A stretch of 64,000 bases of DNA from NCBI GenBank assembly GCA_002360495.1, contig DEQO01000066.1, forward strand, positions 10,563 through 74,562, in the 5' to 3' direction. Numbering within the stretch: the first letter of the stretch is position 1; each line of letters opens with the position of its first letter. Of the stretch, positions 1 to 9,230 are shown one piece after another. A program made the position numbers and the translations under genes. The notes below the pieces were generated by a model. It searched no databases and had not been told where the DNA came from. It saw only the letters and a program-made list of their open reading frames with translations. This stretch comes from Flavobacteriales bacterium UBA3364. Lineage in GTDB: Bacteria > Bacteroidota > Bacteroidia > Flavobacteriales_F > PHOS-HE28.

Positions 1-123
1 CTGGAGTTCAGCGGACACCACCTCCTGTTCTAGGTCATCCGGTGTAACCGCCTGAAGTCCGAAAATCACCTCAACAGCAGGGGGATGGGCCAACGGCTTC
101 GGTGCTAATGAACGATCTGGCAT
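1..123 (-). CDS. partial ORF (5' end only, continues past left window edge), function unknown
   Basis: Minus-strand ATG at 123-121, open for 41 codons to position 1 (MPDRSLAPKPLAHPPAVEVIFGLQAVTPDD...). The PPAVEVIFGLQ start is reminiscent of TIGR04255-type N-termini, but 41 aa is too little to call. Confidence 0.25.
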   Translation of the reverse strand, partial: MPDRSLAPKPLAHPPAVEVIFGLQAVTPDDLEQEVVSAELQ

Positions 124-377
124 TGGGGAGAGCATCGCAAATGTAGAATGTCGGGGTGCTCCCATCTGGCACTTGGGTCTTACAACTTGTTAAGGTCCTC
201 TTGTCCAGAAGGAGAGCCCACGGCTGACAAGCATTTGTCATAGGGTGAATGCCACGCTATGCCCATGGGTTCTGTTCAAAAGATTGCCCGAGGAGCAGTC
301 CTCTCCTTTGGGCGAACGTCCCCGGTGGTTTCCTTTGCGTCAATGTCTACCTTGTCAATCACCGATCGCCGAGAAAC

Positions 378-821
378 ATGTCACAGCTAAGCAACAAGGA
401 CTGGTTGCTAATGGCGCTTGAGCATGGTCATAGACTCCAGCCAGTGCAGTTGCAGAAGAGCTTGTTTCTCCTCGGCAGGAATCTGTCCCCCGAGAAGTTA
501 CAGAACGACTCCTTCTACAAGTTCGAGGCGTATGACTATGGCCCCTTTTGTGGCGAGGTTTATAAAGATGCTGAAGCGCTTGAGGGGAATGGCATGATCG
601 CCATAATGCGACCACCGTTGGTGCGGTTCAACATCTACGAAATCACGGATTTGGGTACCGAGCACGCTCGTGCATTGCGGAAGTCGTTGGATGAGGCGAC
701 GACATCCTATTTGGATGCCGTCGTTGACTTTACGAAGAGTCTCTCGTTCACTGAACTGGTGAGCGCCATCTATAAGGCGTATCCTGAGATGCGCGAAAAG
801 AGTGTATTCCGCGAACCATGA
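378..821 (+). CDS. YwgA / Panacea(DUF4065)-like winged-helix protein, function unknown
   Basis: ORF 249..821; preferred start is ATG 378 (MSQLSNKDW...). LQKSLFLL ... FEAYDYGPFCGEVYKDAEALEGNGMIAI resembles the LQKLxYL ... F.AW.YGP..VY core of SocA/Panacea-YwgA type proteins. Its stop overlaps the next start (ATGA, 818-821). Confidence 0.6.
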   Translation: MSQLSNKDWLLMALEHGHRLQPVQLQKSLFLLGRNLSPEKLQNDSFYKFEAYDYGPFCGEVYKDAEALEGNGMIAIMRPPLVRFNIYEITDLGTEHARALRKSLDEATTSYLDAVVDFTKSLSFTELVSAIYKAYPEMREKSVFREP

Positions 822-1618
822 CCCTGATAGTTGGCATACTGTGCAAAGACGGCGTTGTGGTTGCGTCCGATAGTGCCGCCACTTTTGCGGCAACTGGGAG
901 GCCGACAATTGGTCAGCAGGCTATCCAGAAGATTATTCGTGTTAACGAGCATGTTCTGTTTGCCTCGACAGGTGCCGTGGGAATAGGGCAAGTGCTAGCT
1001 GACCATATGGCCACTTTGTGGAAAGCAAATCAGCTCGGAGGCCAACGAACTCCACCACAGGTGATGAATCACCTTGGTCAAGAGATTAACAAAGTCGTTT
1101 TTCCATACCTGCAGTCCGCCCAGATGCAGCATAAGCTAGTTGGAGAAGCCGGACAATCGCTGTGTAAGTCGTTAGTAGCAATGCCGGTAGGTCGGGAGGC
1201 ATGCTTGTTCAACTTCGACTTCAACGGCGCACCAGAACAGTCAACTAAGGACATACCGTTCATTGCCCTCGGTAGTGGACAGCCTATAGCTGACCCTTTC
1301 TTGGCTTTCCTGAAACGAGTGTTGTGGCCATCACGCGAACCAACACTTGCGGAGGGCCGACTCGCTGCAATATGGACGATAAACCATGTCACCAGGACCA
1401 ACCCAGGTGGTGTTGGTGGGAATATTCAACTCGCTACACTATCAAGTGTAGTAGGTGGTGAATTGGCCGTTCAAGTGGCAACACAAGAAGAGATCACTGA
1501 GCACCTACAGCGTGTTGATACGGCGGAGAAAGCACTAGTAAAGGAGCTTGAAGGTTCTCCGTCCAGCGCTGCTGCCACGGTACCGGTGCCACATGGCGCC
1601 AATGGCCCCAACAATTGA
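818..1618 (+). CDS. proteasome-beta / HslV-like N-terminal-nucleophile Thr peptidase homologue
   Basis: Starts MT-LIVGILCKDGVVVASDS. Thr follows the initiator Met directly, Asp lies 16 residues later, a Lys sits in QKIIRV and a GSG motif in FIALGSGQP. This is the Thr1/Asp17/Lys33/Ser129-type set of proteasome-fold peptidases. Confidence 0.75.
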   Translation: MTLIVGILCKDGVVVASDSAATFAATGRPTIGQQAIQKIIRVNEHVLFASTGAVGIGQVLADHMATLWKANQLGGQRTPPQVMNHLGQEINKVVFPYLQSAQMQHKLVGEAGQSLCKSLVAMPVGREACLFNFDFNGAPEQSTKDIPFIALGSGQPIADPFLAFLKRVLWPSREPTLAEGRLAAIWTINHVTRTNPGGVGGNIQLATLSSVVGGELAVQVATQEEITEHLQRVDTAEKALVKELEGSPSSAAATVPVPHGANGPNN

Positions 1619-8810: not shown

Positions 8811-9230
8811 CTACTTCGGGAACACCTGGATGGTCACCTCCTTCTCCACCATGTCGTTGAAGGTGCCCACGTAGCGCGTGGAGCGCACGATATGGTTGTC
8901 GATCCAATGGTAGTTGCCACCACGCGGCTTGCCGAACAGGATGCCGTGGTGTTTGAAGCCGTGCTTGTTCAGCCAGGCCTCCGTCACTTCGCGATGCGCC
9001 TCGGTGCGTGAGGTGAAGAAGGTGATGATGTGGCCTTGGTCGTACCAGCGGTTGCACGTGTCCAATGCGTCGGGGAAGATCGCGGCATCCAACATCCGTT
9101 CGGGTTCCTCGTTGGGAATGTCCTCGCAGATCGTTCCGTCGATATCGATCAGGTAGTTCTTGATGCCATCAGGCAGGCCGGGACTTGCTTTTTTCCCATC
9201 CTGATAGAGGTCTTGTAAGGGTGTTGACAT
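8811..9230 (-). CDS. HAD-superfamily phosphatase/nucleotidase-like protein
   Basis: HAD motif I, LIDIDGTI, near the N-terminus; small 139-aa single-domain ORF. Confidence 0.7.
   Translation of the reverse strand: MSTPLQDLYQDGKKASPGLPDGIKNYLIDIDGTICEDIPNEEPERMLDAAIFPDALDTCNRWYDQGHIITFFTSRTEAHREVTEAWLNKHGFKHHGILFGKPRGGNYHWIDNHIVRSTRYVGTFNDMVEKEVTIQVFPK

Follow-up and report, generated by a model that had tools for sequence, protein, structure and literature searches.

Introduction

The GPV signature of Panacea domains lies in a strand adjacent to a central helix. Direct binding, with no need of proteases, is how most of the Panacea antitoxins tested work, whereas SocA, the founding member, serves as a proteolytic adaptor that delivers SocB to ClpXP (PMC8832971). 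A second field of comparison is provided by the proteasome homologs, of which Fuchs, Alva and Lupas described 22 new groups in 2021, with no informative gene context for the orphan bacterial ones (PMC8665760). In the 64,000-nucleotide (nt) stretch of Flavobacteriales bacterium UBA3364 analysed here (the window), these two protein classes meet in one locus, where a Panacea-like protein of 147 amino acids (aa), the partner or P0001, is encoded directly upstream of a 266-aa protein with a predicted proteasome fold, the peptidase or P0002. The two genes are shown to be inherited together, with no conserved third gene, and are interpreted as a self-contained, horizontally moving cassette that is best classed as a candidate Panacea-type two-gene system with a putative new kind of effector.

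The locus resembles the type II PanA-PanT systems (Panacea/DUF4065; Kurata et al. 2022, PMC8832971; Ernits et al. 2023, PMC10440598) in that a small upstream Panacea-like protein, with a central LQK..F helix and a strand of the type Gly-Pro-hydrophobic, is tightly coupled to a larger downstream enzyme, and in that the pairs are sporadic, mobile and often located beside defence genes. It is distinct from them in that the partner, which scores under the Pfam threshold for Panacea, has both a winged-helix insert and an NSVF tail, in that a proteasome-fold peptidase takes the downstream position as a putative toxin, and in that swapping of partners is not observed. With SocAB, the type VI system of Caulobacter, it shares a Panacea-domain protein functionally tied to a self-compartmentalising protease; SocA, however, hands its toxin to the housekeeping ClpXP, whereas here the protease is a dedicated neighbour and no SocB-like gene is present. 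The DarTG complex provides the best solved-structure match of the partner, but the similarity is weak and confined to one domain, and the locus encodes neither a macrodomain nor a DarT-like ADP-ribosyltransferase.

On the protease side, the Ntn-hydrolase proteasome fold and the catalytic residues are shared with the 20S beta subunit, HslV, Anbu and BPH. In contrast to the 20S proteasome, the locus has a single such gene, with no alpha subunit gene and no beta propeptide, the Thr following directly upon the Met; unlike HslVU and Anbu, it has no HslU, ATP-grasp, transglutaminase or alpha-E neighbour, and the gene is accessory rather than core. The widespread WPH group (representative WP_040339656.1) resembles both alpha and beta subunits and carries a predicted C-terminal coiled-coil helix (PMC8665760). 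The P0002 family likewise lacks a propeptide, retains Thr1, Asp17, Lys33 and Gly47 (proteasome numbering), resembles archaeal alpha and beta subunits, has a long C-terminal helix and is widely but patchily distributed. It probably belongs to the WPH group, whose description it fits.

A preliminary description of the window, made from its letters, knew of no toxin-antitoxin or defence module that pairs a Panacea-like protein with a proteasome-like peptidase, and none was found in the surveys or by full-text search. The accessible portions of the text and supplements of the Panacea survey (PMC8832971) and of the NetFlax network (PMC10440598) contain no proteasome-type toxin, and neither these nor the survey of proteasome homologs (PMC8665760) describe the pair. 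A full-text literature search that linked proteasome-like proteins or proteasome homologs with anti-phage defence, toxin-antitoxin systems, Panacea or PDC-M19 returned nothing relevant.

An overlapping gene pair in low-GC DNA

The window corresponds to G000:C83:10563-74562, where G000 is the genome under study. Its first base is preceded by 10,562 contig bases, so the left part of the island, already suspected to be cut off, does lie outside the window; this left flank was read as L007. The pair and the residues discussed below are located as follows (window coordinates, strand, feature, evidence).

378-821, + strand: partner gene, 147-aa Panacea-like winged-helix protein P0001 (open reading frame (ORF) listing, translation, family matches)
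818-1618, + strand: peptidase gene, 266-aa propeptide-less proteasome-beta-like threonine peptidase P0002 (ORF, Pfam, AlphaFold2 (AF2) model, Foldseek)
818-821, + strand: ATGA overlap of partner stop and peptidase start (sequence)
540-548, + strand: Gly55-Pro56-Phe57 of the partner, corresponding to the GPV signature of Panacea and situated in a beta strand that flanks the central helix (alignment, model)
801-809, + strand: Ser142-Val143-Phe144 of the partner, near-C-terminal NSVF motif, here KSVF (alignment)
821-823, + strand: Thr2 codon, predicted N-terminal nucleophile once Met1 is removed (homolog alignment)
869-871, + strand: Asp18 codon, proteasome Asp17 (invariant, 63/63)
929-931, + strand: Lys38 codon, proteasome Lys33, in QKIIRV (invariant, 63/63; aligned with the conserved Lys of archaeal beta subunits)
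1271-1279, + strand: Gly152-Ser153-Gly154, proteasome Gly128-Ser129-Gly130 (G152 63/63, S153 57/63, G154 62/63)
1484-1618, + strand: C-terminal long helix (residues 223-245), then a variable Pro-rich tail (DSSP on the model, homolog tails)
1-1650, no strand: lower-GC patch of ~52%, extending leftward to about contig position 9000 (composition profiles)

The two overlapping ORFs with their shared ATGA are thus present as originally read, and this arrangement shows the partner and peptidase genes to be, on the level of their DNA sequence, translationally coupled. The partner start codon at 378 is backed by the homolog alignment, in which KDW is conserved; the gene caller of the source collection chose an alternative start at Met12, which would give a protein of 136 aa. 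The pair also lies, as had been proposed, in DNA of lower GC content (~0.52) than the adjacent fdsA: the composition profile runs at 0.515-0.535 across window positions 1-1600 and at 0.60-0.675 from 1600 onward, within fdsA; the pair itself stands at 52%, its flanks at 60-65%.

A stand-alone proteasome-beta-like threonine peptidase

P0002 passes the gathering cut-off of the Pfam Proteasome family (PF00227) with 41.7 bits against 22.4; its matches to the NCBIfam models of archaeal beta (2.8e-10) and alpha (6e-6) subunits are both far under the respective cut-offs, and no PADLOC model matches it. A search for homologs recovered 418 proteins of ~260 aa each. Asp18, Lys38, Gly52, which occupies the oxyanion-hole position, and Gly55 are invariant across 63 aligned homologs, and a Thr directly follows the start codon in all 54 that have a full N-terminus, the other nine beginning at an internal Met that is apparently a mis-called start. 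Because the predicted catalytic residues are conserved throughout the 63 homologs, they are a family-wide property and not a product of chance. Cleavage of Met1 ahead of a Thr is expected from the specificity of methionine aminopeptidase, and would expose Thr2 as the nucleophile.

The AF2 model of P0002 (pLDDT 90.7, pTM 0.87) comprises the proteasome sandwich followed by the long C-terminal helix 223-245, beyond which the Pro-rich tail is disordered (pLDDT 56-68), and the tails of the homologs are Pro-rich and variable as well. When this model is compared with the Protein Data Bank (PDB) by Foldseek, 20S subunits of Mycobacterium, Rhodococcus and Thermoplasma are matched with E about 1e-13, and the template modelling (TM) scores against beta subunits, normalised to the target, reach 0.74-0.82. 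The profile of the peptidase family finds archaeal beta subunits closest among PDB sequences (2.9e-8), with profile position 2 aligned to the mature Thr1 of the catalytic beta subunits. No Anbu, BPH or HslV chain occurs among the best 60 PDB profile matches, which reach down to about E 0.02, and the sole HslV-type match of the peptidase, to a phage 'HslV family' group, is weak.

The Pfam, residue conservation, model, Foldseek and profile results together therefore define P0002 as a propeptide-less, apparently active, stand-alone proteasome-beta-like threonine peptidase. The catalytic set listed in the preliminary description, with Thr2, Asp18 sixteen residues further on, Lys38 in QKIIRV and Gly-Ser-Gly at 152-154, is found complete within a proteasome fold. 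The same account had placed the peptidase outside any HslVU, 20S or Anbu context, and we arrive at the same view: G000 contains no second proteasome-like gene, and neither HslU/AAA, alpha subunit, ATP-grasp, transglutaminase nor alpha-E genes are seen beside the pair, either here or in the annotated related loci. For the Anbu-type genes this check covered the annotated contexts and the 25 commonest of 105 neighbour families. P0002 is outside the HslV, Anbu, BPH and 20S systems.

A divergent Panacea-like partner

P0001 displays the motifs LQKSLFLL at residues 25-32, F..AYDYGPF at 49-57 and VY at 61-62. Its match to the Pfam family SocA_Panacea (PF13274; E 0.0096, 17.3 bits) remains below the gathering score of 25.7, while 25 of 73 partner homologs match the family at E<0.01, the best at 9.3e-5; among the same 73, ten match the winged-helix Pfam family PadR and eight RTP. 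NCBIfam models of SocA (5e-6) and DarG (0.0024) also recognise P0001, as do PADLOC models of PDC-M19A (1.2e-10) and DarG, together with phrog_14939, and the source labels of its relatives include 'YwgA' and 'phage-associated protein'. In a profile comparison by hhalign with seven bona fide PF13274 domains gathered from related genomes, the partner family aligns over 105 columns with a probability of 59% and E 9.3e-5, in a register that sets LQKSLFLL opposite LNKLLFYAD and YGPF opposite MGPV.

The AF2 model of P0001 (pLDDT 95.7) places the strand formed by residues 55-57 (GPF) against helix 22-35, as in the Panacea core, and G55 and P56 are invariant in the 73 homologs. By Foldseek, the best PDB match is the DarTG complex 7yk3 (E 1.7e-3, TM 0.58), with MarR/PadR regulators ranking after it. 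The DarTG chains matched comprise 187-188 residues, and the DarG models of NCBIfam and PADLOC, when matching P0001, cover DarG positions of about 177-283; because of this chain length and model range, the structure matched is probably the toxin-binding C-terminal part of DarG. Among predicted viral structures, uncharacterised Sulfolobus virus proteins are the best matches and a phage 'SocA-like Panacea' protein ranks eighth, and the partner family profile has no significant match among PDB sequences. The partner family is large, since its profile collects 404 clusters at E<=1e-30 and 1624 at E<=1e-10 from 1.84 billion representatives. P0001 is therefore best called a divergent Panacea-like winged-helix protein, and the earlier assignment to SocA/Panacea/YwgA stands at the level of remote homology.

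Towards the C-terminus, S142 and F144 are invariant in the partner homologs. The NSVF motif to which they belong occurs in 52 of 54 paired loci, mostly two residues before the C-terminus, with the distance ranging from 1 to 8. Five of 150 partner representatives extend 50-70 residues past the motif, among them one with NSRF and one with NSVK. We considered a strictly terminal NSVF tail that plugs the active site in the manner of HbYX motifs, which is unlikely because the distance to the end varies and some relatives continue beyond the motif; an internal inhibitory segment is possible.

The two genes are inherited together

In each of the first three related contexts, a homolog of 144-146 aa, 44-51% identical to P0001, is encoded directly upstream of the peptidase. 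A metagenome scan with the peptidase alignment yielded 80 loci, of which 73 were distinct and 66 had sufficient upstream DNA, and both families were sought in every locus by hidden Markov models. The 66 loci are distributed as follows.

59 of 66: intact peptidase with an intact partner directly upstream
2 of 66 (L013, L016): partner and peptidase both broken
3 of 66 (L036, L066, L085): catalytic N-terminus of the peptidase lost, no partner
2 of 66 (L068, L096): intact peptidase, partner frameshifted or internally deleted
0 of 66: intact peptidase without a partner gene

Co-occurrence in other genomes, which the preliminary description had proposed as a check, is thus found without exception among the intact loci: the two genes are adjacent in 59 of 59, with the partner never more than 28 nt upstream. 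Measured in 54 pairs, the spacing is -4 in 11 loci, -1 in two and 2-4 nt in 23, with a maximum of 28 nt. Pairwise distances of partner and peptidase correlate with r 0.51, a value reached by none of 2000 permutations, and distant partner homologs (about 40% identity) taken as the starting point lead again to a peptidase gene. The commonest neighbour family, HsdM, is present in only 6 of 73 loci, and no recurrent third gene is observed. More distant relatives of the partner are fused to a different domain (PDC-M19A type). One prophage-like locus combines an intact partner with a frameshifted peptidase.

In L036, the partner gene and the first seven peptidase codons are replaced by an AT-rich segment (L036:880-960) with a repeated GTAAAATACTAA unit, which looks like the end of an inserted element.

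Sporadic distribution beside defence and mobile genes

One of 61 related genomes has the peptidase, which all 36 congeners lack, and a true partner is found in one of 401 genomes sampled from the phylum, where 11 further weak matches are to proteins of about 300 aa. Loci with relatives carry source labels as diverse as Geothrix, Gemmatimonadaceae, Burkholderiales, Propionivibrio and Omnitrophica. The GC content of the pair lies under that of its flanks in 21 of the 24 long loci, across hosts whose GC ranges from 28 to 68%. The settings of individual copies include the following.

L008, L104, L102: within or beside type I restriction-modification (R-M) operons
L103: beside a TPR-TIR protein and a primase-polymerase
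L010: beside integrases, a reverse transcriptase and Fic
L016: adjoining an insertion sequence fragment
L105:6480-7825: clean insertion between pyrG (CTP synthase) and kdsA

The clean insertion in L105 means that movement requires no more than the two genes. A tally of the 122 nearest neighbours of 33 loci, purely descriptive and with no matched background, has R-M families as the most recurrent: HsdS occurs four times, HsdM three times, and ResIII, Eco57I, HNH and DUF5131 twice each; BrxL, Abi_2, AlwI and a DDE transposase occur once each, and housekeeping genes are found as well. In G000 itself, the pair lies in a variable stretch to the left of fdsA, together with a PDC-S36 homolog, an HNH nuclease and a divergent three-gene operon, and the equivalent spot of a congener carries different cargo that includes an XhoI-type R-M system. 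Tracing the left-flank synteny through a type IX secretion system (T9SS) protease produced only paralog noise, and the variable spot was defined by DNA search instead. Overall, the pair is shown to be sporadic, compositionally foreign and recurrently next to R-M and other defence genes. The idea of a phage-borne pair was dropped because viral contigs yielded no relatives.

Within the window, the only operator-like feature upstream of the pair is a weak 17-nt direct repeat (304-320 and 331-347). A scan for sigma-70 promoters was uninformative, and the host probably uses other promoter types.

Other elements around the locus and in relatives

The right edge of the low-GC patch is marked by one further feature of the window.

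1630-1714, + strand: Flavo-1-like repeated RNA motif, flanked by the stop codons of the peptidase gene and of fdsA (Rfam RF01705)

This motif scores 33.9 bits (E 7e-5) with RF01705, under the gathering score of 42. Because five more partial copies with 77-93% identity are present on other G000 contigs, it is a dispersed host repeat and not part of the module.

On the left, the divergent partial ORF noted at the window edge turns out to be the 5' end of a gene that encodes a 268-aa protein of the TIGR04255 family ('sporadically distributed'; E 5e-22). This gene, at window positions 1-165 on the - strand and continuing into L007:8909-10727 (-), heads an overlapping three-gene operon whose other ORFs, of 173 and 172 aa, have no family match; the genes of this operon do not recur beside the pair in the other loci. 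A 235-nt segment (L007:8644-8878), either non-coding or containing a short ORF, has a counterpart of 92% identity at the syntenic spot of congener G009, and two congeners contain copies of its last 100 nt at other places. The segment may frame the variable cargo as a repeat or a site of recombination. Further left, L007:7523-8524 (+) encodes an HNH_2 endonuclease (Pfam 5.6e-12; PADLOC 'HNH' 6.8e-18) directly preceded by an overlapping 201-aa ORF without family match, and these two may be another small defence-type pair in the island. At 3.6 kb to the left of the window, on contig C83, L007:6094-6927 (+) encodes a PDC-S36 homolog (E 2e-91) that is full-length and includes a NOV_C/DUF3883 domain. 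G009 has a copy of 90% identity at a different place (C1:10541-11392), so that the PDC-S36 homolog is itself mobile.

In G009, the variable stretch beside fdsA holds an XhoI-type restriction enzyme and an Eco57I/TaqI_C-type methyltransferase (L018:9179-11604), and nearer to fdsA, at the position of the pair in G000, a gene for a 1528-aa CARDB/fn3/M23 protein. The stretch beside fdsA is a hot spot for accessory and defence cargo.

The weak partner matches elsewhere in the phylum appear to be of another kind. L107:1486-2385 (+) encodes a 299-aa protein with a Panacea-like N-domain and a C-terminal domain that, by eye, we take to be DUF488-like, followed by a conserved-looking 273-aa gene. Ten similar weak matches (L108-L117) lie in open frames of roughly 300 aa, one of only 104 aa. 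The strong match of the partner to PADLOC PDC-M19A suggests that the L107-L117 proteins belong to the PDC-M19A type, a different system that uses a related domain.

Discussion

The pair would be understood most readily as a toxin-antitoxin or abortive-infection module in which the peptidase is the effector and is restrained by the partner, a reading that we hold to have even chances of being correct. It is proposed because of the antitoxin ancestry of the partner, the overlapping genes with the partner upstream, the strict co-inheritance, the missing catalytic N-terminus in all partner-less peptidase copies, the foreign and sporadic distribution, and the defence and mobile neighbours. In such a module, the partner would bind the peptidase and keep it inactive, either by blocking the active site or by preventing the self-assembly needed for proteasome-type activity. 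Were the partner lost, degraded or diverted, for example by phage infection or by loss of the element, the peptidase would become active and would cleave cellular or viral proteins, leading to growth arrest or aborted infection. The fuller proposal, in which a widespread mobile toxin-antitoxin or abortive-infection module has a proteasome-fold threonine peptidase as its effector and a Panacea/DarG-like partner that silences this peptidase and may also sense the trigger, is put forward more tentatively, and we consider it somewhat more apt to fail than to hold.

Several observations weigh against this interpretation. The partner does not reach the Pfam threshold for Panacea, and swapping between partners is not observed, each of the close partner homologs examined being located with this peptidase. 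Among decayed copies the damage is not clearly asymmetric, with two damaged partners against one frameshifted peptidase; as a toxin-antitoxin test, decay asymmetry was set aside with cases this few and mixed. The neighbour tally is descriptive, as said above, and several pair loci lie among housekeeping genes. Upstream palindromes, compared with shuffled sequences, average 5.6 against 5.3 nt, no excess that would hint at autoregulation. No toxin is, to our knowledge, a proteasome-family enzyme, and for Anbu and BPH, which are stand-alone homologs, papers from 2017 reportedly found little activity in vitro.

Among the alternatives, the one that survives best has the partner recruit substrates to the peptidase or activate it, as SocA does for ClpXP, the outcome being a dedicated degradation of specific, possibly foreign proteins that is not toxic to the host. 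The precedent of SocA itself speaks for such an adaptor, obligate co-occurrence and co-evolution suit it as well as they suit an inhibitor, and proteasome-type enzymes normally require a substrate-selecting partner while no AAA+ gene is located near the pair. We nevertheless regard it as unlikely: most of the tested Panacea antitoxins bind directly and do not require proteases, the nearest solved relative of the partner is probably the toxin-binding antitoxin domain of DarG, and an adaptor leaves unexplained why the catalytic N-terminus is lost in three of three partner-less copies.

A regulatory switch, in which the winged-helix partner would be a DNA-binding repressor cleaved by a peptidase dedicated to it, as in ImmR/ImmA, and the pair would control its own transcription or that of a surrounding mobile element, is less probable still and in our view quite doubtful. 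The MarR/PadR-type regulators that follow DarTG among the structural matches would suit it, as would the PadR and RTP matches of ten and eight family members and the location of some pairs in mobile or prophage-like DNA. However, no regulated or third gene is conserved, the surrounding elements vary from locus to locus, upstream palindromes are not enriched, and the copy between pyrG and kdsA consists of the two inserted genes and nothing else.

A housekeeping role, in which an orphan proteasome homolog would serve protein quality control and the small gene would help it to assemble or to remain stable, would be in keeping with a fold and catalytic residues typical of a general protease and with the few loci among core metabolic genes, but is very improbable for a pair with the rarity documented above (peptidase in 1/61 related genomes, partner in 1/401 of the phylum), atypical GC, variable and defence-gene-rich neighbourhoods, and pseudogenised copies.

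We know of no function for bacterial proteasome relatives other than HslV and the actinobacterial 20S proteasome. With its near-obligate partner of antitoxin ancestry, its mobile and sporadic distribution and its neighbours in defence islands, the pair described here makes the function of one orphan group testable. If the toxin-antitoxin or abortive-infection reading is true, a conflict system would for the first time be seen to rely on a proteasome-family enzyme, and an orphan group of bacterial proteasome homologs would gain a biological role. With the peptidase as effector, the toxins that pair with Panacea-type antitoxins would be extended by a new enzyme class and bacterial immunity by a new proteolytic mechanism, whereas the partner as adaptor would be the first dedicated substrate selector of a stand-alone bacterial proteasome homolog.

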